From positions 48,614,401-48,678,400 of the forward strand of contig CM120641.1 of NCBI GenBank assembly GCA_051362555.1: a DNA stretch of 64,000 nt, in the 5' to 3' direction. This DNA is from Lingula anatina. Lineage: Eukaryota > Animalia > Brachiopoda. Shown one piece after another: positions 4,324 through 30,115 of this stretch (within the stretch, counting starts at the first letter, position 1; the number at the start of each line of letters is the position of its first letter). The translations under genes and the position numbers were made by a program. The notes under the pieces were generated by a model that saw nothing but the letters and a program-made list of their open reading frames with translations, did no database searches and was not told where the DNA came from.

Positions 4324-4645
4324 TTAGATATCAGTGGTCTGCATCCCATTAATGACCACAGTTCCAGCCTTGGGGTCAAACTTCATCTGACCCTCCTGGT
4401 ACGGCGTCTGTCCACTGGTGTGATTGAGGTCATTTTTGTCCATCTTTGTGGCATCGTGCTCGTTTAGAGCCGCTTGGAGGAACATGTCACTCTTGGCTAC
4501 TTGAGCTGGGGAAATGTTGGTGTCAAAGTCATCATATAAGTCTATTGTCAATGCTTTGTTGTCATATCCATTGATTTCCTTGGCTTCTATCACATTGTCA
4601 TCCAGTGAATTTGTGTCGCTCTCTGATCCCGTGCTTTCACTGTGG
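4324..4645 (-). CDS. Cad87A: Gene 1 last exon (SLDDNVIE...GMQTTDI*)
   Basis: ORF 4324..4593; acceptor tctctgttccag, phase 2; stop TAA. Confidence 0.9.
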
Positions 4646-7600
4646 CTGGAACAGAGAAACAGTCAAAATTCAGAAACATGAAAAATGTACATGGGACAAT
4701 ATCAAAATCTTGGCTATACCTCATAATTTGGACTGAAGATGCCACTCTAAAATGAAAGTAAGAGCAAAGACAAAGTTCACCCCAGCACCGCAGGGAAGCA
4801 AATCAATGAATCAGCCAAATGACTGCTCCCAAACCTAAAGTAATGCAGACATACACACAGATTGAAATAAACAACCAAATGTCCTTAAAATGCATGCAGT
4901 TGGCAGATCTAGTTGACCAACCAATCAAATTGCTTACCTTCAGACAACACTGCCAAAATATTGGCTGCATAAAAATAATCAAGAAAATCATCAACTTTCT
5001 TAATCTCAGATTTGTGCATTCTTCATTTACAGGATAAAAATAGCAAATAATAATCAAAGAAAAGGAATGCTTAGTAAATAATAAGAGATGAGGATATCAT
5101 TAAAATATGTTTTTTTTTATATAGTTCACTTTTTTGTCAAAAATGTCCAATTTTTCTTTCAAATAACCCCCACAAGTCTCATCTGTACATTGTATGTTAT
5201 ATACTTTCCAAGTTAATAAAATAACTAATACTGCTTAAAATAGTGTTTTACAAAGTGAAAAATCAGCAAATATATAGGCAAGAAACTGTTGAAGATGCTG
5301 ATTTCTTCAAACCCAAAAACCCACAAAGGGTATTCTGATTTCCATCAGTTTCTTATTACAGATCAATCATTGTGAATGCTGTGAGAACAGGTGATCATTT
5401 AGATGTTTTATGTACAAAAACAAATTTGATGAGTCAAATATTCAGGCAAATGTAGAAAAAAATCACATATTCATAAAATGATGTGATTGATGCTCGGTGC
5501 TGTCATGTATAGAAACAGTTATCTTCATTATGAAGTCATTGAGTGTCCAGAAGAAGTTGACTAAGTGTTAAAGTCAATCTCTCAGGACTGACTAAACCAG
5601 AAGTGTCCAGTGTTACTGCTGTATGTCTGCAGACATATACTACACACTGCACTGCACTTTTATCCATCTCTCAAACTTCAGCATCTAAGCAAAAATAGCT
5701 TCTTCTAAAAACCAAAAAAACAGAGTATTCCAAATATAGGCATCACAAGTGATAACAGAGATAACACTGGCAATGCAGAAGTAGCAGAGACATCTGGTGT
5801 CCATCAAGCTGCATGCGGCATGCACTGAGACGGAGCTCCCACTCACCTCCATTAAAGCTCAGTACTAATATTAAATGGCCGGAACCGCCGCATTCGTCTA
5901 AGCAGCAGCAGCAGCAGGACGGGACAGAAATACATGTTAAAAGGCTACCTATGCCCAACATGCACATACACATATAATGCAGCTATTTAAATCACTAATC
6001 ACGTCAGTATCACACTGACAGGCATTGTTTAAGAAAGGCAATCAACAAATAAACCATGGCAAATTTTGGTCATCTTTCTGTTCAGATAACCCCATCAGCC
6101 ATTGCTGACATCTTCTACTAACAGACCCAGTATTAACTGAATGCCATGAATATACACCTTTCATCCAATCAAGGTAGCCAGCTAGAGCACCTGTACAGAC
6201 AGAAATACACAGGACTGCATCTTTTCCAGCTGACAATCTTCCAGCAATAAATACAAACATGCCCAAGCAAAAGATTCATAAGAATAATGACACTTTCAAA
6301 GCATGCAAGCATGCAACCCTGGCAATTTTCAAGGATTAAAATTTTGACTCCATGCCATTTTTAACAGAGCTGCTGGTCATAAGCATTACTTTCTTGAACA
6401 AAGAGAATAATTTTAACAGAATACATCTAATTTCATATAATCAAGATATGCTGGTAATTGAGTACACACCTGTTTGTAACTAATTCTGAACATATACAGG
6501 TCTTAAATGTATTCCACTTATCTGATGCTAGTAACTTTTACCTCATTAACATTAATTCACTGCAAAATTCTAATTAGTGTCTGTACATAAAAAGACCTAC
6601 CTGTCTGCATCTGCTTCTTCGCCGTCTGGCCAAGCATTCTCCATCTGCTGACCAAACAACGGGTTAGTCCTGCAGGGAGAAAACAACATAAACATCATTT
6701 ATCATTTGTCCATCATAGCACCTAATACTATACGTGATCATCATCCATATCATATCTCACACTGAAGCATGAAATATCACATCAATTAAGCATGCCAATG
6801 TTAGAGATCATCAGTCACAAAGTAACAGAGCCCAGAATTCTCTGTGCAAAATCATACAAAATGCAATGACATTTTGTGTTTAAGGACAATAAAATGAATT
6901 TGAAGCCATTGTTAATTTACATTTAAACAAGGATCAGTGAAACAATAACTATGAACTGAAAGAAATGTTGTATGTATATAACCATTGTGCTTTTAAAAAA
7001 GTGAAGATATTGTTTAAAATATGTTAGTTCTAAATAGCTACGTATCTACTTTCAACATGCACACACCATTTACCCACAAGACTAGTATTTGATGTATTTG
7101 TCCTTTTGACTCTGGTCATATAGACAATATAGCCTAGTCTACGAGTAAAGAAACAGTCGGGAAAAATTGAGAGATTGACAAAAATGTATAAGAGACTGTG
7201 CTTCAGACATGACAGTGTGTGCAGAATCATAACTCAGGTAAAGATTGTAAAGAACAGGATTCAGTGTTAGTAATAAGTACATCTACATCTAATGAACTCC
7301 ATACATAATTTATACTTTCTTGTTATTACAGTAATGTACAGTGTAGCTTAAGCTCAGTATATACACTGAGGGAAATGTTCTTATATATGTATATACAATA
7401 AGAGGGCAAAATATTGATGCACATAAAAAAAACATTTGTTAAAATATACTCTTTTCTTCAACCAAACTTGGTTACATTTAGAAACGATGGTAAATTTCCC
7501 AGATCATTAGGTGGATAAAAATATTGATTATTTATTAAATCCTTCATGAACAACATCTGCTAAGTCAAAAATAAGAAACAACATTTTTTAATGAAAAAAG

Positions 7601-10600
7601 GTTTCTGATAACTGCTTAAGATGTGGACTTTTTATAAATACTTAAAAACCAAGATTTTTATGGTCAAAAGATAGGAGGCAGTAGTATTATTGATAATAAT
7701 CCATGCAAAAGCTACAGTTTCTTCATGCAGAATGAAATTCAAGCTATAACCACAGCATTCTGTCGCTGCGTCATCCTAGCCATATCACATCAGAGAGTGC
7801 GTGTTGGGATGACTCACATGCAACATACAAAATATAACAGAGAACTTAATTATAAATAGCATAACAAGGCAAATAATCCTACTCATAATAAATGCTCAGA
7901 GACAAACACAGATGCGGGGAGAAGAACATAAACATAATTGTAGTCTAAAGAGAATTCACTTGCTTTACCCTAAAACCTGGTTTGTCCCTCATTTTTAAGA
8001 GGGTTGACGTAGGCATATTCATTTTGTCCATACCAGTCATCTGTAGCTTCCATACTGTGTGGAAATAAAACAGCGGAAAATGCTAATGATGCAATTAAAA
8101 TCACACCAGGTGCTCTGCATAGAAACATGTGCTATTTTTGACCCAAATAAGTGATCACTGTATGTGCTATACACAAAAGCTGGGCATACCATGTAAGAAG
8201 TAAATCCTGCAGATTTGAGACAATATTCAAATTTCATATTTAAATTTACTTTTAATTCAATCATAATTTGTATGCCCAAAAAAGCCAAATATTTATTCTT
8301 AGCTTAAGAATATCATTTCAGCTTTTGCAAAGCAATAATCAAATGCACTTAATAAGCAGAAAATCAATATAAAAAAATAACTATAAGAAAAACAGACTTT
8401 AGGGTGATATGGAGGAAATATTATTGTAGTTTTAATTTTCATAATCATTTTGTCATTTTGTGAGTACCCATCATTCCACATTGTAAATTTGTGGAATGTA
8501 ATGCATAGAACTTCAGCCAAGTATAATAAAAGACAAGTATCTTTCTTAAAAATGAAGTGTAAGTCTGGAAACAAAATAGAAGATTAAAAAGAAATCTATG
8601 TTTTTGTTTTTTCCACCATAAAGATTTTGCATCAAGGGGTCATCTTTCAGGTCAGTGACAAAAACAGCTGGTATACCAATCATGAGTCTCAAAATATTGA
8701 TCTAACATCACAACAAGCCTCAGTAATGATTTTCTTCTCATATTGGGCTGGAAAGTCAGATCATTCTACTTCTTGACAGCTGAATACCACTGGTCTGTGT
8801 TATGCTGAGATTAAATGGACTATAATCAAGTGGTATTCGCTCAGCATGTAATCCACAAGCACAGGCTCTTATACTTAATTAAGTGTCTACAGTAAAACTA
8901 CACCTAGACGACAGAGACAAGTTGAGGAGGGATTTTTATAAATGTCTCTAGAACTATATCAACTGGTGTCAAAACAAATCAAGAACACTGTTATTATATC
9001 TAATGCTAAACCAATGATGTTAGTTGCTTTTCAAAGAATTATGACATGTACTACTAATGAAAATGAAGAACTAAAAGCAATAAATGAAATTTCTATTGAT
9101 TTTCTGATCAGTAATGGTTTGGGATCAGAATATGTTGGGTTTTTTTTGCCTAATAAGTCATTGATTTTATGTGAACTTTTAGCTCTGTGAACATAAGTCG
9201 TAAACACGCAAAGCCCAATTAATAAAACCCATTGTTCAATATTACAAAAAACAAAGAATGATTCCTGTCATAATTTGTAACAAGAACAGCAAAAAATAGC
9301 TCTATCAAAATTACAAATTCAGAAAACTGACAGACAGGCCATGGGGTAATACAGGCAGCAGATATGCAGAGCAGAAATGCAAACAGAAAAATTGCCATAA
9401 ATATATGTATAATGCACTCATAATCCTTAGTCTTGTGTTATAACCACTAATACTGGATTACTCATGATGAAGGCAGTAGGGTGCTCTAGAACTAGATTAC
9501 TCATCACCAGATGATAGAACTTGTGAAGGTAACATGGTATACGTTATAGCATTCACTTTAAATGAAATTCACTGAAATAGCTGTGGTCAAATGAGAGATG
9601 ATATTGCAAGCATCCATAATGGAATAAAGATGAAAAATTTTGTTCGACAAAATTAAATGCTGTGAAACAATTAATAAAAACCAACATTCCCATTCATCAA
9701 TAATTCAAAGGCTACAAACACTTAAAGATGCAAATCATAAATGAAGTGTAGATAATTCAATAGTCAGAACTGATTTAGACAAACACCAAATGCTAAACAA
9801 TCAAGATCACCTTGTAGACCCTGCAAAGAAAAAGTAAGTGAAAAAATCTATTGTAGAAATATAAGCTAAAAACTTACCCTTCAAATGTGTGTAAATTGGT
9901 CCCAGGTACAAGATCCACATGGTTTAAACCATTGTCATTTGTATCTGAAGAGAAGTGACAGTTTATTATATTAGTGTGATTGCTATGTAGAGACTTATTA
10001 TTGTTGTGAAATGCTTATAATATAGAAATATAGTAATTTGTAATATGTAAAAGACACTTCAGCTTTGTGCATTTTCTTTTGCTTTTTTGTATTTCCTTTT
10101 TTCAGGAGGAAATGAAACTGAACTTACTGTAAGCATATGCTGTGGCAGCTTTGAGCTTCCTCTTGTATCTGTAAAAAAAGCAGAAAAATTTCAAAGTAAA
10201 GATGAAAAGCATATCATTATCAAACAGAACTGTTCATCTGTGACCACACAGTAGACATTTCAGTCCAGCTAAGGTCACCTTTGTTTCCATGGGCAAATAA
10301 AAAAAAAACAGTCTTACTACATGCAGTCCTACTACTACTATTATCCAAAGCTTATAAAAAACATTTCTGTACATGAGCACATTTGCAAACATTTCATCGA
10401 CAGATCACATGAATTTTCGTTTTTATATATCTGTTACTTACTTCCTCCTGGCAGTGAAGAACATTCCTATCAAGATAAGCAGCAGCAGCAGCAGTACCAG
10501 TGCTGTGATCAGGAGAGCCATCCTCAGCGGCTCAGCCAGACCCTCCACAGGTGGTTCCTCAGGGGTGATTTTCTGGATCAAAGATATATTATATTGGTGA

Positions 10601-13600
10601 ATATTTGTTGGTTTAGACTGGGATACTATCATTTATAAGACATGTATTCAAGTTTTCAAGCTCTAATATAACTGTCCTAGGTATGGTCTATCAAAACAAT
10701 ATATTTAATCCTCACAGCTACTGAAGAAATAGTTCCATGTAAAAGCATGAGCCTCCCAGCACTCACTGGGTGATACATCAAATTGATTTGAATTGAGGTA
10801 ATTTTATTTAAACAAAAGGGACTAACTGGCCTAAGGGACCATACCCAGACCCTAAATTAACTGTGGATCGCTCTATCTCCGAGACGATCCTCGCTAAATT
10901 GCAATTAACTTAAGCAGCTAAGATGTCTGTCACACCTACTGAAGCTGCTAGGAGCAATTATGGTTTAGCAGTTTCAGAAGGCATGCCAGCCATCAAAGCC
11001 ACTAAAGCCGAAAGCAATTTAGTAAAAAAACTCTTAGAGCAGGATCGATCCTGTTAGATCGATCTAAGTATGAGTCTAAGGGATATTAATTAGCTAGGAT
11101 TTTTTAATTATTATCTCCAAAAACAGCAAGAATTAGGCTTTGGGTTGAGTCATTGGCATGAACAACTATTTGAAAAGATGATTTGGTCACATTTAAGCTA
11201 CTTTTCATTGTGCAATTCCAATCTCACATGATTCATGCATTTTAAAACACTGCATCTTAAGGTATTTGCTGAGAATCTATTGCAATATGGACAAGAACTA
11301 ACAAAATTCCACACCATCTTTCTCTGTGACATGCAGTCCTGCATGAATCTCTAGTCTAATGTATGTTTTAATACAAATGATGGAGTTGAATTCTTTTTAG
11401 TATGGCACATCTGTATCAAATTATGCTGTTCAATCATAAAACCCACTAAAATTGGTTATTATGTAAATGTTTCTTTAAGAAATTGGTTTTAAATTTGTGA
11501 AGATGCACTTACAGTGACTTCATGAACGCCAAATCTTTTATAAAATGCAGTCAACTGGTCCAAATTTGCTTCTAGTACACTGAAAAACAAACAAAACAAT
11601 ATAAGTTTACTGAGAGATAAATACAGGATCAATTAAATCTACAGCCTCTTTATTATAACAAAAATGTCTTAACATTAATATTTCCCCATGTATATTTATA
11701 ATAATAATATCATTATATGGCAATTGATATGAAGGGCCATTATAAAAGATATACGTAGACACGTTTTTATATCATTCAAATCAACATAACAAGGCAGCAA
11801 AGCTGTCAAATGTACAGACAAAAAACAGAAAATAAAGATGCAAAAAAGGTCATTTTGTCAATTTTGATGCAATAATAAATAATGCTTATAATAGCACTGT
11901 CAGTCAACACTGAATTTTAATCTTGCACAACAGGTAACATGGTCAATAACAGGAGCGGACCCAGAGATATTTTCTGACAGTATTACAAAGTATCTATGTT
12001 GATCCATCCTCCATTTTGATGGTCTTCCAACAGAAAAAAATAGATACCAGTCAATATAAACTTAATAACCTGACTGTCTTCAGGAAGACCCAGAAGATGG
12101 TCCACCCCTTCAATAAAACTACAGTTTCAGGACCATGAGAGTTCAAATTCACATTATGAAACTCTCAATATTTGAAAAATGATGACAGTGCATAAAATAA
12201 TATTACATAATGTTTAAAGACATAAAAAACAATACAACTGCTTTTGTAGAAATACAGAAAATATGCAGAGCCCCAGGCAGATGAGAGTTAAAAGTCACAA
12301 ATGCAAGTGTTTGAGAAAAAATTATAAAGGAAAACATAACAAAGCTAGAAAAGCACTTTGAGAGTGCAGACCTCTGCCAAGGCAGCAATTGTTGATTATT
12401 ATTGATAATTGATTGATTATTGTTCCAGACCACCACCAAAAATTAATCATTGTCCTCTTTGGCCCACTTCCGACAGTTCCTGAAAATTTCTGCAAAATCA
12501 GTCCATAACTTTTTGTGTTATGTGGATGACAGACAAACGGGGGTGAAAATATGACCTCCTTGGCAGAGCTTGAGGTAAATATAATTCCAATGAAGATGCT
12601 ATTCAAACTTTTAATCTTCCAGTTTGATATATATATATATATATATATATTATTTAAAACTTATTTGCAATATTAAACAAAATTTACCTGCATAATCACT
12701 GCTTCCTTATTATTAATCTAGCAGAGAGCTTAACCTTTGGGAGTTTACAGGGAAATATCAACAAGTGTGCTTTATGTAATCTCATTTAATGGCCTATTAA
12801 GGCAAATGACTTTATAACTCTGAAATTAATCTAGTGATACCCAAGGGTAATTTACAGACTGACCCACTCAAAGGTCTTTAGGCCCATAAGTCACACTTTA
12901 AGAAAAGCACAAAACCATAATGCCCAAAATAGGAGACTACCAATCCTGATGCAATAATACATTATGTTTAACTGCACAGTCAACATCAACTTATGCACAA
13001 CAGGTAACACAGACGAAATTAAAAGCATAAGGCTTCAGGCCCATCGGGGTTCAAGTTTATACTTAGAAAGTGCCAGAATGAGAAAAATGAAAATTTCACA
13101 AAAAATGCATAAATTCAATAAAAATGATAATCCAATAGAGCTGGTTTTCTCATATGAGCTGAAGGCCAATCCTAAAAATCGTACTTGTAAGTTAAAAATG
13201 ATAATAAGTAGCACAGTTTTCTTTTCATAATGTTTGCAGTAGCAGTGCAAAAAGATTGTTGTCAATTTTGATGTAACATTACATAATAAATTAGAGAATA
13301 ATTATCACCAATTTTTGTTTATTGACTATAAATAGGATGGACATGTAGAAAATATGATTACCATTCGGCTTCATGTTCATGGGAGCTCTGAGTCCCACAA
13401 TGAATATGCCAAAAAGATAATGAATATTACACTAAAATGTATAGCTTCCAGAAAAAGAAGCCAATTAGACTGCTTTTCCAACTCAGGCTGCATTTTAGTC
13501 CTGTGTTTCTTTTTTGAAAGTTTGACAGTCATAAGTAACACAGTTTTCCCATAATGGTCATCAAGGCAGCAGCACCCAAAATTGTGTTTTCTTCTATTTT

Positions 13601-15760
13601 GATGCAACATTACATAATGCTTAACGGCATAATGACCATCGATTTTTAATAATAAAATATAAGTGTCATGAATTTTCAGAAAATGTGACTAGCATGGGTC
13701 TTCAAGCCCGTGGTGGTTCTAAGTCACACCTTGGAAATGCCAATATGTGAAAAATTACATTTTCACAAAAAACTGTTTAATTGCCAGAAAAATTTACCAA
13801 ACAGACTGCATTGCCTACTGAAGCTGTATTTTAGACCCATGTTTCTTTCCTGTAAGTTTGAGAACAGTAATTGACACGATTTTCCTTAAATGGTCATCAT
13901 GGGAGCAGTGCCCAAAACAGGGGTTTCTTCAAATTTTGATGCAACATTACATAATGTTTAACAGCATAATGACCATCAATTTTTAATTATAAAATATTAG
14001 TATAACGCATATGCAGAAAATGTGACAAGCAAAGGTCTTCAGGATCATGGAACTTCAAAGTCATACATTGAAAATGCCAATATGTGAAAAATTAAATTTT
14101 CACAAAAAAACTGCTTAACTACCAGAAAAATTTACCAAACAGACTGCATTGCCTACTGAAGCTGTATTTTAGTCCCATGTTTCTTTCCTGTAAGTTTGAG
14201 AACAGTAAGTGACATGACTTTCCTTAAATGGTCATCATGGGAGCAGTGCCCAAAATAGGGATTTCTTCAAATTTTGATGCAATATTACATAATGTTTTAC
14301 AGCATAATGACCATCAATTTTTAATCATAAAATATTAGTATCATGGATATTCAGAAAATGTGACTAGCAATGATCTGCAGGCTCATGGAACTTCAAAGTC
14401 ACATCTTAAAAATGCCAAACTGTAAAAAAGACAGCACTGTTCTGAAATGGGTTTATTTCCATTTTAACACTTTTTAAACAAAACAAAATAAACAGTATAC
14501 TTCCATTTTTATATGACCAACTAAGAAAATTGATGAGATGGGAAAAATATCAATAGAACAGTGTTAAATGTCCAATTTCCTCCATTCTGAGATTCTGAAC
14601 ATAGTTGATGATTGAATCTAACAAACTGCAATATGATATGATATGAGTTTATTTCCATTTTTGACACTTTATTACACAATACACGATATCAAGTTTACCA
14701 TCATTTTTACATAATCAACTAACAATGTTGTAAAGATGCAGGAAATATCAAACAAACACTTTTACGTATCTTATTAGTTAAATAATGAGACTGTTAACAT
14801 GCTTAAGAATTGAATCTGAGGAAATGTGAAAAAACAGCATAACTTCTAAAATAATAACCAGATTATGCTGATTTTCCAACTCAACCTGCATTTTAGTAAG
14901 ATTGACCACTCCTGTAAGTATAATGACAATTGGACTATCTGTTTTTCTTATATAGTGTTATCAGTGTTGCATATATGTTGAAAAAAGTGAAAAAATAGCA
15001 TAACTCCCCTAAAAATGGCTTGATCATGCTGATTTTCGAACTTGATCTGCGGATTATGAATCTTCATCAGTTTTGTAAGTTTGAATCCAAAAAGTAAAGT
15101 GGTTTTCCACTTATCGTGTTATCGGTGCTGCATATATGCTGAAAAAAGTTTAAAAAAACAGCATTACTTCCCTACAAGTCCCCCGATCATGCTGATTTTC
15201 GAACTTGACCTGCGTATTATAAATATTTATCAGTTCTGTAAGTTTCAAGCCAAAAGCCAAAACGGTTTTCCAGTTATCGTGTTATCGGTGCTGTATATAT
15301 GCTGAAAAAAGAGAAAAAATAGCCTAAATTCACTAAAAAATGACCCAATCATGCCGATTTTCGAACTTGACCTGCGTATTATGAATATTCATCAGTTCTT
15401 TAAGTTTCAAGCCAAAAAGTAAAATGGTTTTCCAGTTATCATGTTATCGGTGCTGCATTTATGCTGAAAAAAGAATAAAATTAGCCTAAATTCATTAAAA
15501 ATGACCCAATCACGCTGATTTTGGAACTTGACCTACGTATTATGAATATTCATCAGTTCTGTAAGTTTCAAGCCAAAAAGTAAAACAGTTTTCCATTTAT
15601 CGTGTTATCGGTGCTTCATTTATGCTGAAAAAAGTGAAATAACATGGACATTCAGAAAATGTGACAAGCAAAAGTCTTCAAGATCATGGAACTTTAAAGT
15701 CACACCTTGAAAATGCCAATATGTGAAAAATTAAATTTTCACAAAAAACTGTTTAACTGC

Positions 15761-15807
<47 letters not shown>

Positions 15808-18800
15808 AAACAGACTGCATTGCCTACTGAAGCTGTATTTTAGTCCCATGTTTCTATCCTGTAAGTTTGAGAACAGTAAGTGACATGATTTTCCTTAAAT
15901 GGTCATCATGGAAGCAGTGCCCAAAATGGGGGTTTCTTCAAATTTTGATGCAATATTACATAATGTTTAACAGCTTAATGACCATCAATTTTTAATTATA
16001 AAATATTTGTATCACAGATATTCAGAAAATGTGACTAGTAAAGGTCTTCAGGCCCATGGAACTTCAAAGTCACGCCTTGATAATGCCAAAATGTAAACAA
16101 GACAGCACTGTTCTGAAATGGGTTTATTTCCATTTTTAACACTTTTTTTTAACATAAAACAAAATAAACATTTTACTGCCATTTTTATATGTCCAACTAA
16201 GAAAATTGATGAGATGGGAAAAGTATCAATAGAACAGTGTTAAATGTCCAATTTCCTCCATTCTGAGATTCTGAACATAGTGGATGATTGAATCTGACAA
16301 ACTGCAATGATATGAGTTTATTTCCATTTTTGACACTTTATTACACAATACATGATAACAAGTTTACCATGTTTTTTACATAATCAACTAACAATGTTGT
16401 AAAGATGCAGGAAATATCAAACAAACACTTTTAGGCATCTTATTAGTTAAATAATGAGACTGTTAACATGCCTAATAATTGAATCTGAGGAAATGTGAAA
16501 AAACAGTATAACTTCTTAAGTAATGGCCCGATTATGCTTATTTTCGAACTCAACCTGCGTTTTAGTAAGATTGACCACTCCTGTGAGTATAATTACAATT
16601 GGCCAATCCGTTTTTCTTATATTGTGTTATCAGTGTTGCATTTATATTGAAAATAGTGAAAAAACAGCATAAATTAACCCAATCATGCTGATTTTCGAAC
16701 TTGACCTGCGTATTATGAATATTCATCAGTTCTGTAAGTATCAAGTCAAAAGGTAAAATGGTTTTCCAGTTATCGTGTTATCGGTGCTGCATACATGCTG
16801 AAAAAAGTGAAAAAACAGCATAAATTCCCTAAAATTGACCCGATCATGCTGATTTTCGAACTTGACCTGCGTATTATGAATATTCATCAGTTCTGTAAGT
16901 TTCAAGTCAAATGGTAAAATGGTTTTCCACTTATCGTGTTATCGGTGCTGCATGTATGCTGAAAAAAGTGAAAAAACAGCATAAATTCCCTAAAAGTGAC
17001 CCGATCATGCTGATTTTCGAACTTGACCTGCGTATTAGGAATATTCATCGGTTCTGCAAGTTTCAAATCAAAAGGTAAAATGGTTTTCCACTTATCGTGT
17101 TATCGGTAAAAGTGCACGGCGACGGCGGCGACGACGGCGACGGCGACGACAGACGCAGATGATGGCTATATGTACAGACACATCTGTGTCTGTACATAAA
17201 AAGCACTATATAATTAAAGGGATAATAACTCTTCGTATGAGATCTATTTTTCATAATAAAAACATTGTGAATAACTCATAGAAATATAATATATTCTGTT
17301 TTACCACAAAAACGGCAGTTATAGCTATTTTTTCTGATATCTGAGCTTGTCTTCAGATCATGTGACCTCCATTGATGGCTATACTCTGTTAAAATCTCTT
17401 AAGAGATTTTAACAAAAAACCAAACTTTTTAGAAAAAAAACCCGGGAATAACTTTGAATATAAAAATGGATTCATTAACCATTGGTAAGTTTGGGAAAAT
17501 TGTTGTTTACTCCAGGAAAATTCATTTTTTGGCCGAAACGAAGAGTTATTATCCCTTTAACAGTACCAGTCCAACCATTCAAACATTTTTTCATTTACTA
17601 TTTTTAAGTCAATGTAATAGCAGTAACTTACCCCACCAAAGCATCAGATGATAGGACTTGTTTTGTTTCTCTTTGTATAGCATGGACATAAACATCAGTT
17701 CTACAAAGAAAAGGTTTCATGACAAATAATTTGTATTGTGTGTAAATATGTGATAATTCCTGTATTTGTGACAGTAGTTATTAGCAGTGTTTATTAGCTA
17801 TGTGTATTATTTATGTGATATACTGTACTTCTATCTCTACTTTAGAATATTTCCTTATATTATAAATGTGCTCTACTTAAATTCATTTTATGGCAAAAAA
17901 ATCAAAGATTTTTATGGTGATAGGGATTATAATTAAAATATCAGATGCAGCAGACTGCAGGTGATAATCTACATGTATATATCAATGTCCAAAACACTAG
18001 TCCAATCTTCATGAACACATACCAGGGAAAAACAATAACTCAAAATTCTAGAATACTTTATTTCTTAAATGAACTTAACATTTAAATAAGAAAGTGGATG
18101 TAATTAAAAACCCAAGTTCTTACCTATCTATTTTGAGGTTACTACTACTACTACTCCCTGTAGGGTCATGTTCTACAAACTTGTCCACATTAATGATAGC
18201 TCCAGTGATGTTGGAGAGATATCTGGAAACATAGGGCCATGAAAAACATTCCAATCAAAGCATGCTATTCAATACTGTATCAAGAAGACAATGACAAAGT
18301 GATTTCATTATTATCATAGTATAGTATGGACTATCAGTAATTAATTAAAGTAAGTGAAATTAAATCACATACTGAATGGCAACGTACAGGTGGTATAGGC
18401 TATGCTGTTTTGTGCATCTCCCAGGGTCAGGGTCAACTGTCACTGCTGTCATTTGACAGAAGTCACCTGTAGGTCAGTCTCCAGTACGTGATTTAATCTT
18501 TCTTTTACACAATTGTTAAAAACTGTCATTTTTCCAATCTTTGCTTACTCTTCAAGTTCTCTCTTCTTCAGTCTGACCTCATCTGGAGTACCAGGTAAAA
18601 CAATCTTGATCTGCTGATTGGAACCTATCAAATAAATCTGAAAAATAAACAGCATACTGTTTACACATACATACTTCAAACTCACAATATTACTGATGTC
18701 CAGAAGTACAGAAAATAATCATCATCTATTCTATAAGTTACATAGCAAGAATCTGGCAGTCATTAAATTAAACTGTCATGCATGATAACATCCCCTTAAC

Positions 18801-21800
18801 ATAAGTCTTGGAACAAACAAACAAGTGAATAAATAAGTAAATAAACGATTAAAACAAAGTGAATAAATAAGTAAATAAGCGAATAAACAAATGGAGCATA
18901 TATTCCTTCAACAGTACCATAACAATGAATATAATGAATTATTATAACTGTGAAGAGCTGAGAATTAATTGAAGCATGTTACATTCATAATACCAATGAC
19001 TGTTTCATACCGATACTTTGGCCTTGTCATTGTACCCTCCAGAATCATTGACATATACAAAGAAGTCGACATAGCCGAACATGTCACTCTCAAAGTACAT
19101 GTCAGACTTGACATTGCCACTGAGGTCCACCAGGAAAGGGTTTTTGCTGCCTATCTTCTGTTTCAGATCACTACTGATGTTCATACTGCCAGGCACCATG
19201 TAAAACTGGACACGGCTGTTGTTGCCTATGTCACGGTCCACCACTTCATTCTGGGAAATGAGGAGAGAACATTACTACTGATGAAGTATTAAATGACCCT
19301 GATATACAGGGGTAGTAATATAGATATAGGTGTAGGACCCCCCTCCCCCAGCCAGTTATGTTGCCCTCTGACACTTTTTTTTACACAAGCACATGCATAC
19401 ATACATGCACATACCCACCCACAATTCTATGCAAAAGAGATAAGGGTGAAATACATATATACTCATCTGCTCATTGAATGTACAGAGGTTCTCAGCATTG
19501 CTTCAATCTTGGTATCAATAACCAAAAGAAACAATACATACCTTCAGCTCTAATATTGTAGCAGGGGGCTCCACTTCTTTAGTGATGCCGGCAGTGAAGA
19601 GGTGCTTATTAAACGTGGGTGGGTTGTCATTGACATCTTGAACCTGGACCTCAATAACAACCTGAGCATCTTTGTTCTTAGTGGTTGGTTCATTAGCGCA
19701 GTCGTTACTGGCTTCCACAACCAGTGTGTACCTTGCTGTCTTTTCACGGTCAAGGGACATATTTGTCTTTAAGCTTATGTTGGCCTTGGAATCGGTATAA
19801 TTTACCTCGAAAAGTGTCTTGTTTCCCTCTAAAAATATAATTTGCAATTTTGCTAAAAAATTGAACTGAAAAAGGAGATAGTTTGAGACAGAATTTTGGG
19901 AGACACAAATCAAAATTCAAGATGCTCCTGGGCAGCTTTAAGGGCCAATTCTAAAGTGACCATTGAGCATAAAACATCAACATCATCATCTCATCAGCAC
20001 ATGATGTCAGGGCTAGGTTTTAACAGGCAACAAATGCTTCATCTTACTCATTATGTTTCTTACATATTTCTTCTACATTTTTAGGCCAGTATTTCTCAGC
20101 AGTGCGCCAACTGATGTTCATCTTTATATAAGAAACCATGCCTAGGTTAAATTTGCTGGTTATGACTCTGTATGCAAACATATTTAGCAAATGCCATGCA
20201 TTATTAATATCCCTTGGCAAATTTTAAAGTTTGCAGCATATTTAGAACAAACTAAACAGTTTGCAGAATTACAGTTTGCAAGAAAGTTTGCAAGCAAGTC
20301 TCCAGGCCTCATTTGTATGCTAATATTCCTTCCTGCAAATTTGCAGAAAATGTGCTGCAAATTTAAGTGTGCTAACAGATATCACTATAAAACAATTCTC
20401 ACCCCTTTTCCAGGAGTGATCTACTTACCTACAATCCAATAACAGATTACTGCAGCTACATCTTCATCGTCTGCCTTAAGATTACTGAAAACCCTGGCAC
20501 CCTTTTTATTTTCTTCCACATATTTAGTAATGGAAGGCATGGGATACTTTTCACGGTCAAAGGTAGGCTCATGATCATTAATGTCAAGGATGAGTATAAT
20601 TACATCCACCTGAGAGGACAATGCCTTCCCTAATGGAGCATGATCATATGCCTCTACTCGGACCTAAAAGTTATTTAAAATATAGTAAAACATTTATACC
20701 ACTATTCTAACAGGATTCTACATCATTTCATATCATGGCATGACATTTATCAAGGAAACAAAAAAGGTGATTGTAATTCAATGATGAAATGCACATTTTT
20801 AGAACAAGTATGTAAAAAATAACTGTACACGAAACAGAGGCTCCGCTTCTGACATGTATATCATCTCAAATATCAATTCTTATCCATTTCAAATATCCAC
20901 ACAGTACCACATCCTTTAAAATATTCCTCAAAGGGTTATTCTGCCTCAAGACATTGCTTTAAGGACTTTTAACAATAAGTGTTCTACCTTAATAATACAG
21001 ATTTCAATATGGAGTTATACACTAGAGGGAAATTTACTGCTTTTCACAAGTTTTTAAAGTTTGCTTCCCCCTGCTTGGGCATTAGTTACTAACTTTTCGT
21101 GTTTGACTCTCTTTGATACAGCTGTATTACTAAGAAATAAAACTGGATGTAAATAGGTCTTTAAACTACTAGATCGTTCATGATGTGAGGACACATAAGT
21201 TGTACTTACAAACCAATAATACCATGGATACTCACTGTATACTGATTCACTGTCTCTCTGTCCAGCTCCTTTTTTGTTCGTAATACCCCACTTTCTGGGT
21301 CAATTTTAAAGGTTTCATAGCTTTCCTGATAGACTACAGAGTTATTAAGCAGACGGTAGCTGACACGGCCATTTTCTCCAAGGTCAAGGTCAGTAGCTTT
21401 AACTGTGGTGATATTTCCATTGACAGGGAAACTCTAGAATAATAATCATCATATGATACATTCTGATATCATCCAGAAGTGCTGAAAAACTCCTAGGATA
21501 AAAAATTTAACAAATTTAACAGGCAAGCATATTTGTTTTCAGTTTTATAACAGTAAGGTTTGTTTAAAAGTTGCCTTGAAATTTGCAATTCTAGTTTAAA
21601 CATAATACAAAAAATCTTTGCTGTCATGCTTATTATAATAAAAGTGACTACTGTTTACTCTAGAATTAAAAATTCAGTTCTTTTTTAGTAATACTTTGAT
21701 AAAAAAAAAACATTGCAAGGTTAGATAATGCCTAGAAGGTATCAAATGTTTACACACAATCTAGTTACCTCATTAACACTGATGGTTATGGATTTCCATG

Positions 21801-24800
21801 GAAATTTTGGTTCATGGTCATTGACATCAATAACTTGTATCTTCACCTCAGTGCTGCCATTCAGAGGTATAGAGCCATGGTCTGTGGCCTGAATTGTCAT
21901 ATAGAAGGAGCCTTGTTTACCTTTCAGAGATGCATTAGGTTGGACAGCACCAGTTGTGAGATTGATGGCAAACAGTTCAGTTCCGTTGCCAGAGTCTGGG
22001 ACAACAGTATAGGTCAATCTGGAATTGTCTGTCCCAGCCTGATCCCTGTCATTGGCTGTGACGGTTGCTATGACATGGCTCATATCTTCGTCCTCTTCTA
22101 CTTTGAAAAAATATGATTCTTCACTGAATTTTGGGCTCTCATCATTGATGTCTGTTATGTGCACTGTAATCTGGTTTTGAATTTTTCTGCTTGGTGGCTG
22201 ATCCAGATTGTCCCTGGCTTCAATATTGAGCAAGTATGTGCTCTTGTTTTCTCTGTCCAGCTGGCCTGCTACTGTTATAACACCCTAGATAAAATAGGAC
22301 AACAGTGTCAGCAACAGTAAGGTACATCTAACAACAGACTACTTTTATTAAAATTTATTATATTCTACTCATTAAATTACTCAAATTCAATAAACAACAG
22401 AACAGTAAATTTTTTATAATTTTTAGTAAACATTAAAAAAAATAAAAACACCAACAATTTACATCAATACTCACAGTGTTAGGATCAATCCTAAACTTGC
22501 CATTATCGCCACTCTTTATGATATAAGTGACTTTCCCATAGTCACCGTCATCACGATCAGTGGCATTGACAGTCAGCACTGGGGTGTTAACAGGGGCATT
22601 CTCTGGGACACTGGCAGATGTTGGCATATTGTCAACCCATACAGGGTCATTGTCATTAGTATCCATAACAATAACAACCACAGTAGCAGTGCTGGTCAGA
22701 GAGGGTCCTGTGTTACTTGACGGGATATCAACAGCAATGGCTTGAAATTGTTCCTCTGGATGTTGCTCTCTGTCCAGTGGTATTTTCAGAGTAACATCAC
22801 CTAAAATAACCAAATTGTTTTTGGTTGATGCATTTACACAGGAAGATGAAGAAGGCAAAAAAAAAAAAAAAAGAAATCCCCGACTGTTTAAATTTGATGT
22901 AGTTGCTTTTTATCAATGTTCTCAGAATAACTGTATAATTCAAATAATCTTAACCTTGTCTTTTATGAAAGTTAACATATCTAGCATTTTTATATGTACC
23001 AGTACAGCTTCAGTGCACACACTCTACATAAATTATGACACAATATAAACTATAACACAATATATACCATAACCCAATATATACTGAAACCAAATTATCA
23101 CTGATTTTTTATTGCAAATTTTCCTTATAAGAAAAAATTCATTTACAAAAGCTTTCAGACCTTGAACACAAACTAATTTTTTTTTGAAAATTAGACATAA
23201 CTTATCAATTATACCTGTCCAGACAGTTATCTTCAATACACTGTTAACCAGATAAAAAATAAAATAATAATAATAAAAATAAAAAAAAATTAAAAAGGCT
23301 GTATCCAAACAATTACCAGTAAGTGGATTGACTTCAAACTTGGATGTGTTGCTGACTATGCTGAAGTTAACTCGCTGTCCTTGATCTGCGTCCTTGGCCT
23401 TTAGAGTTACAACCCTGCTCCCTTGTTGCCCTGTGGTGGCGCTCTCGTTGACCTGGACAGTGTACATATACTGCACTGTCATATTCTGAGTCATATTCTT
23501 GGTAAAGTTTGCTGGGGGGGACTCAATAAACTCTGGAGGATTGTCGTTATAGTCCAAAAGAGTTATCACTAAAGTGGCTGAAATTATAAAATGTACATCA
23601 AAATAAGTGAAAGGTTCTTGTAACCAGTTATTTTAAAAAGTATTTTCAGTAATTGACCGTTAAAGCTACTCACCAAAAATGTTTTTTTTTTTTTACTTTT
23701 ATAGTTTTGACCTGGACTCAGATTGTTTTCACTTCACCAAGGCTAGATCAGGATAATAAACACAACCAACACAGTTTCAATATATTTAAAAAGGATCAAA
23801 ATAAAATGGCCCTGGTGAAATGTAAAGTAATCCAGCCAATATCAGAACTACACTGAATCCTGATCTGACCTGTGAGGCATTTGCATGGATGGATGGATGT
23901 GCTAGTACAAACCATTCTGGAGAATTAATTAATTAATTATATAATTTCTGCAAATTGTTAATATGAATTACAGGAAAAGTTGTAAATATTTAAGAGACAT
24001 TTATCATTAAAAGATATCATAAATGTTTTAACTGTCATGGTCTACTTCTACAGTATGTCTAGGACCCCATTTCCAGAGATCAGATCGATCTACTATAGAT
24101 TGACCTAACTCTGTGGGGGTTCACGCTAAATAACTGTCAGCCGGGTGGACACGAAAGTTATATACCCCCTTATAGCTTGTAGTAGGCGGGACGGACATTT
24201 AAGCCGGATTATCTGACAGTAATCTAGTGAGACTCCCCGCGGGGATAGATCGATCTAAAAGCTCTGGGAATACAGCCTAGGTCTAAGTCTGAGGGAACAT
24301 TCAGAATAGATGATCCCAGTATTTACTGATCCTCCGACTAAATATGGCCAAGCCCAGTTCAAAAGCAATGCCACTAATTGCATGATGGTCTCCCTGCCTC
24401 CACACTCTCCATCACTGCAGGGGCCTAGCAATTAAACCTCGGCACTAAGATTTAATCCATTAAATGGCGCATGTAGAGGTAAGGAGACCCTCGGGAAGCA
24501 GCAGCATTGCTTTTGAAATGTGGTCAGCCATATTTAGTCAGCTTATCAGTTAGTACTGGGGTCATTTATTCTGAATGGCCCCTGAGTAACCCTAGGGTCC
24601 ATCAGTTTACTAACCTGTGGCTGTCTGAGGTCTGGGGTGAAATGCATTCTGGTCCTCTACTCTGACAGTCAGGGAGACATCGCTCTGATTTTCCCGGTTT
24701 AGTGTGTTCTTCACATACACAGAGCCATTGGTGCTGTGGATGCCAAACCAGCTCTGATAGTTCTGATAAAATTAGAATATTGAAAACAAAATTGTCACAC

Positions 24801-26611
24801 AATAGTTTCAGCATTTGTGGCATCTGCAGTAGAATGGTATCACACAAAGACAACATGAAACAAGGCAGCAAAGCTGTCAAATGTACAGACAAAGAACAGA
24901 AAATAAAGATGCAAATAAGTGAAAAATTAAATTTTCACAAAAAACTATTAAATTGCCAGAAAAATTTACCAAACAGACTGCGTTGCCTATTGAAGTTGTA
25001 TGTTAGACCCATGTTTCTTTCCTGTAAGTTTGAGAACAGTAAGTGACATGATTTCCCTTAAATGGTCATCATAGGAGCAGTGCCCAAAATAGGGGTTTCT
25101 TCAAATTTTGATGCAACATTACATAATATTTAACAGCATAATGACAATCAAATGTTATTAATAAAATATTAGTAACATGGACATTCAGAAAATGTGACAA
25201 GCAAAAGTCTTCAAGATCATGGAACTTTAAAGTCACACCTTGAAAATGCCAATATGTGAAAAATTAAATTTTCACAAAAAACTGTTTAACTGAAAAAAAA
25301 AAAAAAAAAAAACAAAAAAAAAAAAAAAAAAAAAAAACAGACTGCATTGCCTACTGAAGCTGTATTTTAGTCCCATGTTTCTTTCCTGTAAGTTTGAGAA
25401 CAGTAAGTGACATGATTTTCCTTAAATGGTCATCATGGAAGCAGTGCCCAAAATAGGAGTTTCTTCAAATTTTGATGCAATATTACATATGTTTAACAGC
25501 TTAATGACCATCAATTTTTAATTATAAAATATTTGTATCACAGATATTCAGAAAATGTGACTAGCAAAGGTCTTCAGGCCCATGGAACTTCAAAGTCACG
25601 CCTTGAAAATGCCAAAATGTAAACAAGACAGCACTGTTCTGAAATGGGTTTATTTCCATTTTTAACACTTTTTTAACATAAAACAAAATAAACATTTTAC
25701 TGCCATTTTTATATGACCAACTAAGAAAATTGATGAGATGGGAAAAGTATCAATAGAACAGTGTTAAATGTCCAATTTCCTCCATTCTGAGATTCTGAAC
25801 ATAGTGGATGATTGAATCTGACAAACTGCAATGATATGAGTTTATTTCCATTTTTGACACTTTATTACACAATACATGATAACAAGTTTACCATGTTTTT
25901 TACATAATCAACTAACAATGTTGTAAAGATGCAGGAAATATCAAACAAACACTTTTATGCATCTTATTAGTTAAATAATGATCGAGACTGTTAACATGCC
26001 TAATAATTGAATCTGAGGAAATGTGAAAAAAACAGTATAACTTTTAAAATAATGGCCCGATTATGCTGATTTTCGAACTCAACCTGCGTTTTAGTAAGAT
26101 TGACCACTCCTGTGAGTATAATTACAATTGGCCAATCCATTTTTCTTATATTGTGTTATCAGTGTTGCATTTATATTGAAAATAGTGAAAAAACAGCATA
26201 AATTCCCTCAAAATGGCCCAATCATGCTGATTTTCGAACTTGACCTGCGTATTATGAATATTCATCAGTTCTGTAAGTTTCAAGTCAAAAGGTAAAATGG
26301 TTTTCCACTTATCGTGTTATCGGTAAAAGTGCATGGCGACGGCGACGACGGCGACGACAGACGCAGATGATGGCTATATGTACAGACACATCTGTGTCTG
26401 TACATAAAAACAGATACTGTAGGTTAGAATATATATATTAACCTCTAAGATATAAATTCAACACGTTTAACAAAGAACACTTGATACATCCCATAATACT
26501 CAAGTCCTATGAAACCTGACCTATCACATGACAAACAGTGGGACAATTTATATGTGACAATATGGATAGTATATCCAACTTGTACTCGATGATTAATTGG
26601 AATATTTACAG

Positions 26612-26643
<32 letters not shown>

Positions 26644-29600
26644 TACACTCTACTTGAACCAGTAATGTATTGTATGTTCTTGTGATCTATTTTTTTTATT
26701 ATAATCTACTGTACATGTAAAATAAGTACAGGATTTCTGAAATGCATGGATGAAACTATTTTTAAAAAATTTTGGCCCAAGAAGTTTTCTCGTTCTCCCA
26801 CCCCTACCCCCCAACAATAAATCCTGTTTTGCTGTACTTACAGATGATTCCAGTAAAGAATATCTTAAAAAGGAATTCTGGTCTGGGTCTGATGCATTGC
26901 ATGTGTACACAATATGTCCAATGGATGCATTTTCTGAAACTTCCGCCCGGGCTTCTGGCACAGGGAAAGATGGCTTTTCATCATTGACATCTAGTATGTG
27001 AACTATTGCACTGCAGGACGCACTTCGCTGCGGGGTTCCCCTATCCAGTGCAAGGACTGTGAGGTTGTAGACATCCAGAGTCTCCCGGTCAAACCTGGCC
27101 CCTTTCTCCACTTTGATTTTCCCAGAGTTGGGCTCTATCCTAAACTTGTCCATCCCCCCACTCTCTATACGGTAGATGATGATACTGTTAGGATCACCAG
27201 GTTTATCAAGATCTGTTGCATTGACTTGTAATACAGTGTCACCTGGAAATAAACCAAAAAACTAGCTTTACATATGATATGAGCTGAAGGAAAGCTGTAC
27301 ATTCAACAGATTTGTTATCACATCAAGCTAATTCTAATATTATATACAAAAATACATAAATCAAATTCATTCACAAAAACTATTTTTGAAAATCAGAGGA
27401 AAAACAAGGCAGCAAAGCTGTCAAATGTACAGACAAAGAACAGAAAATAAAGATGCAAATAAGTGAAAAAATAAAATTTTCACAAAAAACTGTTAAATTG
27501 CCAGAAAAATTTACCAAACAGACTGCGTTGCCTATTGAAGCTGTATGTTAGACCCATGTTTCTTTCCTGTAAGTTTGAGAACAGTAAGTGACATGATTTC
27601 CCTTAAATGGTCATCATAGGAGCAGTGCCCAAAATAGGGGTTTCTTCAAATTTTGATGCAACATTACATAATGTTTAACAGCATAATGACAATCAAATGT
27701 TATTAATAAAATATTAGTAACATGGACATTCAGAAAATGTGACAAGCAAAAGTCTTCAAGATCATGGAACTTTAAAGTCACACCTTGAAAATGCCAATAT
27801 GTGAAAAATTAAATTTTCACAAAAAACTGTTTAACTGCCAAAATAAATAAATAAATAAATAAAAATACCAAACAGACTGCATTGCCTACTGAAGCTGTAT
27901 TTTAGTCCCATGTTTCTTTCCTGTACGTTTGAGAACAGTAACTGCAATGATATGAGTTTATTTCCATTTTTGACACTTTATTACACAATACATGATAACA
28001 AGTTTACCATGTTTTTTACATAATCAACTAACAATGTTGTAAAGATGCAGGAAATATCAAACAAACACTTTTAGGCATCTTATTAGTTAAATAATGAGAC
28101 TGTTAACATGCCTAATAATTGAATCTGAGGAAATGTGAAAAACAGTATAACTTCTAAAATAATGGCCTGATTATGCTGATTTTCGAACTCAACCTGCGTT
28201 TTAGTAAGATTGACCACTCCTGTGAGTATGATTACAATTGGCCAATCCGTTTTTCTTATATTGTGTTATCAGTGTTGTATTTATATTGAAAATAGTGAAA
28301 AAACAGCATAAATTCCCTAAAAATGGCCCAATCATGCTGATTTTCGAACTTGACCTGCGTATTATGAATATTCATCAGTTCTGTAAGTTTCAAGTCAAAA
28401 GGTAAAATGGTTTTCCACTTATCGTGTTATCGGTGCTGCATATATGCTGAAAAAAGTGAAAAAACAGCATAAATTCCTTAAAAGTGACCCGATCATGCTG
28501 ATTTTCGAACGTGACCTGCGTATTATGAATATTCATCAGTTCTGTAAGTTTCAAGTCAAAAGGTAAAATGGTTTTCCACTTATCGTGTTATCGGTGCTGC
28601 ATATATGCTGACAAAAGTGAAAAAACAGCATAAATTCCCTAAAAGTGACCCGATCATGCTGATTTTCGAACTTGACCTGCGTATTATGAATATTCATCAG
28701 TTCTGCAAGTTTCAAGTCAAAAGGTAAAATGGTTTTCCACTTATCGTGTTATCGGTAAAAGTGCACGGCGACGACGGCGACGACGGCGACGACAGACGCA
28801 GATGATGGCTATATGTACAGACACATCTGTGTCTGTACATAATAAACATCATAGTGGTTCAGTTATTAAGATTCAGTTTTAGTATTGTATCATGTAACTT
28901 TATATTTCCCATCACCATGACATCACGATGACATAACAATGACATTACAATGACATCACAATGACATTACAAAATTTAAATTAATGTGGGCAAACTGACA
29001 GTTATCCTGTATATGACATTCATTAGAATGAATTTTTACCATGATAAATAAAGAAAATAAGCCTAAATAAGATAATCCCCAATTTTTCAAGATGATGCAC
29101 ATCATCTAACCAAATGATATTAAAGGGCAGCACAAACCTGTTGTTGCATTCTCATATATTTCAGCTGTGTAACTCTTATTCACAAACACTGGGTCGTTAT
29201 CATTTTCATCCTAAAATGAGCAAATATTTACTTTTAATTTTGTTTACTTTTGATATAAAAGTATATGAGGAAATTGAGATATAGCAAATAAAAGTACATG
29301 AGGAAATTGAGATATTAGCAAATTTTAAATCCCTTGAGCTTTTTAAATACAACTAAAACAGAAGATTCTCTGGACAAGTAATAGATGGAGAAAATGGAAG
29401 GGTGGATAGATGGATGTGTGGATGGATGGTAAGAAGAAAGGATGAATGAAAGGACAAACAGAACAACTTACCACCACTTCTATGTCCACCTGTACCATAG
29501 CACTGAGAGGTGGGGAGCCCCAGTCAGTGGCCGTCACATTTAAATGGAACAAGCCGTCAGAGTTCCTGGGCATAGCCTCGTAGTTCAGGGGGCTGGCCAG

Positions 29601-30045
29601 GCTGATGCTCCCCGTGGTCGTGTCAATGGTAAAGTTCCTCAGGGGGTCTCCACCTGTGATGTTGTAGTACACTTTCCCATTCAGTCCAGAATCTTCATCT
29701 GTGGCCTGGGAAATAGAAACAAAACTTTAACCAACACTGTTCACATACACTTGTATAGATGTACGGATATACATACACATACAGTACACACAAAAATTCA
29801 TGCATGCCAACATAGGCAAACACAAATACATACACACACACAAGCACACTTCTATATACTTAGTAAAACGATTCTACAATCATGTGATGACATTAGAAGT
29901 ACAGGATTAAGAGAGGAATGGATTCCCTGCATCACACTAAAACTCTTGGTTAAAAAATTCCATATTTCAGCATTTCTGGAAAAGGATGGATTCAGAATTC
30001 CCTTGAATTTTCTCTGTAGGTGACCAGTACTTAGCAAATAAAACA

Positions 30046-30115
<70 letters not shown>

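Follow-up and report, generated by a model that had tools for sequence, protein, structure and literature searches.

The cadherin gene and its 3′ end

The window analysed here is a stretch of 64,000 nt from the brachiopod Lingula anatina (GenBank assembly GCA_051362555.1, contig CM120641.1, forward-strand positions 48,614,401 to 48,678,400), and all positions given are those of the window. Its minus strand carries a 'cadherin-23'-like gene, and the feature under study sits at the 3′ end of this gene: two splice junctions within the cytoplasmic tail, at which short alternative exons carrying an in-frame stop replace the C-terminus. The gene yields at least three tail ends (TTDI, GSVV and QTRF, after their last residues), and a fourth, STEL, is likely. 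An initial annotation, made from the letters of the window alone, had foreseen TTDI, QTRF and STEL; it placed the gene beside those of 'other molluscs/annelids', whereas the animal is a brachiopod.

An 80-residue exon of the gene matches two database proteins at 99–100%, both labelled cadherin-23 of Lingula anatina, and the two matched clusters contain six Lingula proteins. The Lingula cadherin is 1903–1908 residues long, has one transmembrane (TM) helix and ends in TTDI. Twelve of its stretches exceed the Pfam threshold for the cadherin repeat (PF00028), and residues 1613–1693 give a weak match to the membrane-adjacent domain PF23206 (21.6 bits, below the cut-off of 27). Many repeats, a membrane-adjacent domain (that weak match) and a single TM helix are hallmarks of the CDH23 family, and the tail contains the juxtamembrane motif P-x-T-N...E-G-x-N-P, an internal helix and a class I PDZ-binding end. 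A hidden Markov model built from 14 invertebrate tails aligns with all three vertebrate CDH23 tails examined across the juxtamembrane motif, helix and PDZ end. In a quick tree (57 rows, no bootstrap, midpoint root, careful search unfinished) a Lingula–mollusc clade (97) is sister to a deuterostome clade that includes vertebrate CDH23, with a joint support of 93. Among the 120 matches listed, the displayed names are cadherin-23, cadherin-23-like or hypothetical protein and none names PCDH15; the gene does not qualify as a PCDH15/Cad99C. The Lingula protein does not reach the vertebrate-type CDH23 length of about 3300 residues; vertebrate CDH23 has 27 repeats. The initial annotation had called the gene Cad87A-like; database names and the quick tree point to membership in the CDH23 group. 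The cad87a gene has been rated a weak CDH23 candidate (score 2/15; PMC10898740).

Table 1. Features of the cadherin gene and its tail in the window. P0002 and P0003 are Lingula database proteins; joints are written donor>acceptor.
Feature	Position	Strand	Evidence
Whole coding span of the cadherin gene	4324..39862	-	tblastn of P0002 and P0003 against the window; Pfam
Signal peptide exon (followed by cadherin repeats, membrane-adjacent domain, TM and tail)	39862-39809	-	Part of coding span
TM exon	10442..10572	-	Joints 11513>10572 and 10442>10168 in reads; matches P0003
Constitutive juxtamembrane exon, 41 nt	10128..10168	-	Joints 10442>10168 and 10128>9944
Constitutive exon ending ...PGTNLHTFE; donor is junction 1	9878..9944	-	82 reads 9878>6669
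Tail introns, nine TGCATG (7822, 7729, 7707, 7061, 6315, 6307, 5964, 5824, 4898)	4646..9877	-	Motif count
Alternative stop exon S, 86 nt, tail GMEATDDWYGQNEYAYVNPLKNEGQTRF, then stop 1 nt before weak donor GTAAAG	7969..8054	-	RefSeq isoform X3; molluscs
Exon GTNPLF...ADAD, 69 nt; donor is junction 2	6601..6669	-	Joints 9878>6669, 6601>4645 and 6601>4964
Candidate stop exon M, 51 nt, tail RRMRRFRPFNISTEL, unconfirmed	5847..5897	-	Splice signals; null test; TGCATG 23 nt downstream
27-nt alternative stop exon, tail SQYFGSVV, stop 2 nt before donor	4938..4964	-	Spliced reads; translation
Last exon, coding part: SLDDN, FLQAALNEHD helix, ...MQTTDI	4324..4645	-	70 reads 6601>4645; 100% match to P0003; CDH23 tail alignment

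Splicing of the tail and a 27-nt stop exon

RNA reads from eight runs (X1–X5 and X7–X9; X6 left out) were aligned to the window, with 6–30% of each run read and depths of 5–25, and a junction was counted only if at least 3 reads with at least 2 different starts spanned it. The default path joins 9878 to 6669 and 6601 to 4645 (Table 1), each in all eight runs, and ends in TTDI; this long tail is the main spliced form. A joint 9944>10133 in run X7 was rejected as splicing, as allelic differences lie behind it. Eighteen variants among the best-supported ones were seen in reads over the tail exons (4345–4615, 6633, 6660 and 7976). Thirteen are synonymous and the other five are amino-acid replacements (K>R, Q>H twice, L>M and T>S); none falls within the last four codons of TTDI.

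The splice sites on which the initial annotation was built are present on the minus strand (acceptors 8054, 5897 and 4645; donors 9878, 6601, 7969 and 5847). All are in phase 2, the three peptides read as claimed, and the stops of the QTRF and STEL exons lie 1 nt and 5 nt before a GT donor. A class I PDZ ligand is defined by S/T-x-hydrophobic at the extreme C-terminus (PMC3527443), and TDI, TRF and TEL all fit this pattern, as does the SVV of an additional exon.

That additional exon, of 27 nt, was missed by the initial annotation, so that its 'three-way' switch was an undercount, and it is the alternative tail best supported by reads. Joint 6601>4964 is spanned by 16 reads (4 in X7, 7 in X8, 5 in X9) and 4938>4645 by 15 (6, 5 and 4), corresponding to an inclusion of 26% (X7), 40% (X8) and 21% (X9), all in one study; none of 30 reads at the same donor in X1–X5 include it (Fisher p 0.0008 by reads, 0.005 by distinct starts). 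It is joined to the last exon, which thereby becomes 3′ UTR; with its stop only 2 nt short of the final junction, the GSVV message would be spared nonsense-mediated decay (NMD). An unannotated, sample-specific exon is added to the Lingula gene model.

The QTRF exon and its conservation

The RefSeq isoform X3 (XP_013391559.1, our P0005) ends exactly in the predicted QTRF tail, and exon 8054-7969 is therefore already annotated; the expectation that annotation would miss such 'hidden' exons was wrong for this one. Together with the reads for TTDI and GSVV, this isoform bears out the proposal that a CDH23-family tail is switched by stop-carrying alternative exons, and the splice switch itself is almost certainly real. 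RNA folding around the QTRF exon is unremarkable (z -1.2).

In the runs, 5 X8 reads and 6 X9 reads extend over position 7976, all with a synonymous variant. Read evidence on the form of the exon is indirect. Rather than a cassette it might be an alternative terminal exon, with a 3′ UTR and poly(A) site of its own in the downstream intron, a lesser but appreciable possibility. The donor GTAAAG is weak, an AATAAA lies at 7536, two full-length X9 reads inside 7868–8068 necessarily overrun the donor, and X9 depth is 0 across 8069–9475 compared with 0.8–3.1 across 6863–7666. However, X9 depth is 1–3 in the next intron too, so unspliced pre-mRNA explains the run-through equally well, and one X8 read gives about 86 letters in its bin and none in the neighbouring bins; this matches the length of the exon and is what splicing on either side of it would give.

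Molluscs were surveyed in 32 named species, 16 of them with more than one sequence; some of the isoforms are visible in this way, and clusters were counted to 15 members. QTRF at the same junction, directly after PGT[NQH]..[YF]E, was found in at least 7 of the 32 species; of the 16 represented by two or more sequences, 6 have it. The residues preceding it diverge between species: KVYMEGEGQTRF in Potamilus, KVYSHVGQTRF in Dreissena, KPHLHEGQTRF in Patella vulgata, KPRLFEGQTRF in Biomphalaria glabrata and Physella, and NNAVFETQTRF in two Saccostrea species. A search of cluster representatives gave, besides the Lingula isoform, two proteins ending in QTRF directly after the same motif, one of them the Potamilus (mussel) protein listed above; the ending also follows the motif in the database protein P0204. 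Judged from these protein sequences, the QTRF ending is kept across brachiopods and molluscs, in bivalves and gastropods alike. Its presence at the same junction in Lingula and molluscs dates the ending to before the brachiopod–mollusc split, which is Cambrian or older. The initial annotation's expectation of a conserved segment was thus borne out for this exon. QTRF is very probably a functional docking end. A short amphioxus form ending in QTRL (P0053) was not counted, as it departs from the long form elsewhere.

Junction 2 is also used alternatively in other animals. Short stop tails of 5–7 residues occur there in at least 9 of the 32 mollusc species, with the ends TATA, TTSA, TTVA, TTIA and TTAA; in Physella isoform X8 a tail of this type directly follows junction 1, which is the behaviour of an exon in its own right. 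At junction 2, crabs and prawns show a five-residue in-frame cassette, and in one prawn isoform the protein terminates after RMCALRE. With alternative splicing at both junctions in molluscs and at the second in arthropods too, the two are old alternative-splicing sites, and the system is not peculiar to this gene. At the same two junctions, Biomphalaria isoforms X6 and X7 (P0376, P0384) have a second stop tail, ending in TLTSV. In-frame inserts of 12–16 residues were seen in the scallop Argopecten (P0197), the limpet Patella (P0326) and the mussel Mytilus coruscus (P0338). A metagenome scan for orthologous introns gave 14 matches that reduce to one locus, intronless over the TM-to-tail stretch read.

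Chance tests and the candidate STEL exon

The two tail introns contain 71 acceptor-to-stop candidates, 10 of which end in S/T-x-hydrophobic compared with 3.1 in shuffles. A strict filter (at least 12 pyrimidines in 17 nt at the acceptor and a donor at most 10 nt from the stop, thresholds chosen after the exons had been seen) was passed by three candidates, with acceptors at 8054, 5897 and 4964, and all three end in S/T-x-hydrophobic. Of 1000 dinucleotide shuffles, 33 gave one strict PDZ-type unit and none gave two or more. In the other 52.4 kb of the window, none of nine strict candidates ends in S/T-x-hydrophobic with either codon prefix.

Splicing noise or annotation artefacts could be invoked for all of the alternative tails, since read counts are low and the RefSeq X isoforms are automatic models. 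Inclusion of 21–40% in three separate runs, the conservation of QTRF across phyla and the null tests largely refute this explanation, and we regard it as highly improbable.

The shuffle tests and splice signals favour the STEL exon as well, and it is probably used. Should it be only a look-alike, spliced very rarely if at all, which is the less probable case, the switch would be a three-way one of TTDI, GSVV and QTRF. Neither 6601>5897 nor 5847>4645 was listed in any of the eight runs, contrary to the initial prediction, compared with 86 reads from donor 6601 to other acceptors. The STEL tail is in none of the six Lingula database proteins, no short TEL-ending tail occurs among the fetched proteins, where conservation had been anticipated, and the acceptor is an unusual CTG repeat. 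These points have to be set against a consensus donor (GAG|GTGAGT), the TGCATG close downstream (Table 1), and the fact that the two other strict units proved real. Thirteen of 1000 shuffles produced a TEL end, and xTEL is the family's own ending (of 118 other matches listed, 103 end in ITEL or VTEL and 8 in TTEL). The missing junctions refer to the 6–30% of each run that was read, at depths of 5–25. Depth at 5858–6058 in run X8 was rejected as support, as it equals reads misplaced from the CTG repeat that the TM exon shares. A second AG inside the exon, at 5864, would give a minimal DAD-STEL-stop; no reads were found for it.

TGCATG elements in the tail introns

The 5.2 kb of tail introns hold nine TGCATG (Table 1), where the remainder of the window would predict 1.9 (Poisson p 1.5e-4); the opposite strand of these introns has two. 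All three stop exons have copies downstream, at +147, +240 and +262 from the QTRF exon, +23 from the STEL exon and +40 from the 27-nt exon. TGCATG is the RBFOX element, copies of which usually promote inclusion when they lie downstream of an exon. Inclusion of the stop exons would then be regulated by cell type, probably through an RBFOX-type factor acting on these copies.

Other features of the window

Exons of the ectodomain lie at 39862–19500. The Lingula versions of the cadherin (P0002, P0003, P0004 and P0007) differ strongly in patches of this part: P0002 and P0003 are 82–87% identical over residues 1–300, 66–69% over 1301–1500 and 100% from 1701 to the end. The ectodomain of the window is a mosaic, nearer P0003 at the N-terminus and nearer P0002 at about 1270–1510, and it has one first repeat where P0007 has two different ones in tandem. 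One possible reading of these patches is a hypervariable series of alleles, diversified by selection for pathogen or self-recognition; another is paralog exchange.

Immediately upstream, also on the minus strand (63526–60861), is a second cadherin gene; its cadherin-like exons lie at about 63500–63290 and 62900–62515, and a TM-like one is found near 61000. Within an intron, at 10890–11075, a short repeat whose ends are inverted, probably a MITE-like element, draws many reads that stem from other parts of the transcriptome, on both strands. Satellite-like units of 161 nt and 338 nt form repeated blocks common to three introns (13467–17107, 25000–26400 and 27500–28800).

Proposed role of the tail switch

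The stop exons at the two tail junctions likely swap the scaffold protein that the cadherin docks on. In the long tail, FLQAALNEHD aligns with DRYLRAAIQEYD of three vertebrate CDH23 tails, a helix that we take to be the site for the harmonin N-domain. Vertebrate CDH23 binds harmonin through an internal segment and the C-terminal motif, where other PDZ proteins compete (PMC10018040, PMC7948954, PMC5493754). Of the Lingula tails, the long one alone keeps the helix together with a T-[DE]-[IL] end; it would accordingly have two contacts with harmonin and be linked to myosin-7. The SLDDN segment and the helix are missing from all short forms, whose tails would present a different PDZ ligand near the membrane. 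A search of PDB sequences with the long tail gave one unrelated repetitive match; with macaque CDH23, ectodomain entries were among the best 60 matches.

The ending D-T-R-L is favoured by NHERF adaptors (PMC3527443, PMC12510010). The QTRF tail may dock adaptors of this type, as T-R-F resembles it; on this likeness, NHERF-type proteins are put forward as its partners only tentatively.

A different explanation is that the main effect of the stop exons is loss of the long tail, which would detach the cadherin from harmonin and myosin-7, or reduced expression by NMD; the new ends would then serve only as export or stability signals. The loss of SLDDN and helix from all short forms agrees with this, as do the mollusc junction-2 tails ending in Ala. 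If the 69-nt exon follows the QTRF exon, the QTRF stop lies 70 nt before the last junction, which is within the usual range of NMD. The GSVV stop, only 2 nt from the last junction, speaks against decay. QTRF is identical in the brachiopod and seven mollusc species while the residues before it change, a constancy that plain truncation or a decay exon would not need. We consider deletion or decay an unlikely main function and partner swapping the likely purpose of the switch; the explanation as a whole, a two-junction stop-exon switch with a probable scaffold swap, is held to be likely to the same degree.

Several observations weigh against this interpretation. Junction 9878>8054, expected from the initial annotation, did not reach the threshold in any of the eight runs, while 82 reads take 9878>6669, and with no junction into 8054 or 5897 in these runs both exons must be rare or absent in the samples. 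The animals of X7–X9 diverge from the window at many sites (mostly 95–99% alike), so tissue and population are confounded in the inclusion of the 27-nt exon, and the TGCATG enrichment was tested after the motif had been noticed. Among the isoforms listed, QTRF was unseen in 25 of the 32 mollusc species, including five Mytilus species, Mercenaria, Argopecten and Haliotis. The mollusc junction-2 tails, with their final Ala, are a poor class I fit and unlike GSVV in sequence; a planthopper tail at junction 2, SFMFQSSV, does resemble the GSVV tail, but comes from two proteins 96% identical, of closely related planthoppers, and is a lead only. Of 14 non-vertebrate long tails, 8 show the helix pattern; neither of the two arthropod tails examined does. 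Lastly, QTRF has Gln rather than Asp/Glu at -3, and NHERF binding does not always follow from a class I motif, as C3aR shows (PMC3527443).

A more far-reaching scenario, which we rate as doubtful, is that the CDH23/Usher-type cadherin of ancestral protostomes already had an RBFOX-controlled two-junction switch between the harmonin–myosin-7 tip complex (long tail) and an apical scaffold of NHERF–ezrin type (QTRF, unchanged since before the brachiopod–mollusc split). Lingula would have a four-way form of it (TTDI, QTRF, GSVV and STEL), and vertebrate CDH23 would have lost it.

Comparison with known systems

No prior description of this tail switch was found in the literature covered, with subscription journals and supplements outside its scope. 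Known already were the QTRF isoforms, as automatic RefSeq models; the conservation of QTRF, the 27-nt exon and the TGCATG enrichment are new here. The 'cadherin-23-like' RefSeq isoforms of molluscs and arthropods are alternatively spliced at the same two junctions, and those of molluscs share QTRF. They differ in being automatic annotations and in that none has a GSVV or STEL tail, and no function described for them was found in the literature. CFTR-type D-T-R-L ligands of NHERF share a T-R-hydrophobic end with the QTRF tail; they are unrelated proteins, and QTRF has Phe at 0 besides Gln at -3.

Proteins that share the PGTN and SLDD motifs with the Lingula tail are presumably CDHR2; unlike the Lingula cadherin they have 9 repeats, and they lie far from it in the tree. 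The CDHR2 tail binds USH1C and MYO7B at the tips of microvilli, in the intermicrovillar adhesion complex, and no mention of a tail switch was found in the part of the article read (PMC6337912).

Vertebrate CDH23 has the homologous juxtamembrane motif and internal helix and a T-E/D-L/I end, and groups with the Lingula protein in the quick tree. Its partners are harmonin, MAGI-1 and PIST. Its exon 68 is, by contrast, an in-frame cassette without effect on the PDZ end (PMC10018040). It is also longer, at about 3300 residues compared with about 1900 in Lingula.

The switch works like that of vertebrate PCDH15 with its tails CD1, CD2 and CD3, likewise a tip-link-type cadherin with spliced alternative cytoplasmic ends; in both, splicing gives different PDZ-type C-termini (in Lingula TTDI and GSVV from reads, QTRF from RefSeq). 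CD2 has isoform-specific roles (PMC10018040, PMC7642844). PCDH15 belongs to another branch of the gene family, however, and swaps whole large cytoplasmic domains, whereas Lingula uses stop exons of 27–86 nt that shorten the tail to 8–28 new residues, of which at least the 27-nt exon rejoins the shared last exon. Usher-type cadherins tie stereocilia and microvilli together via PDZ scaffolds, and tail switching among them was known from vertebrate PCDH15. The conservation of QTRF points to a conserved PDZ partner, and a short peptide could be used to look for it in tissue of oyster, snail or limpet; the switch also offers a route to how the harmonin-based complex was rewired among sensory, neural and absorptive cells before vertebrates. 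The CDH23 branch has a switch of its own, made of tiny stop exons, with one ending conserved in two phyla.

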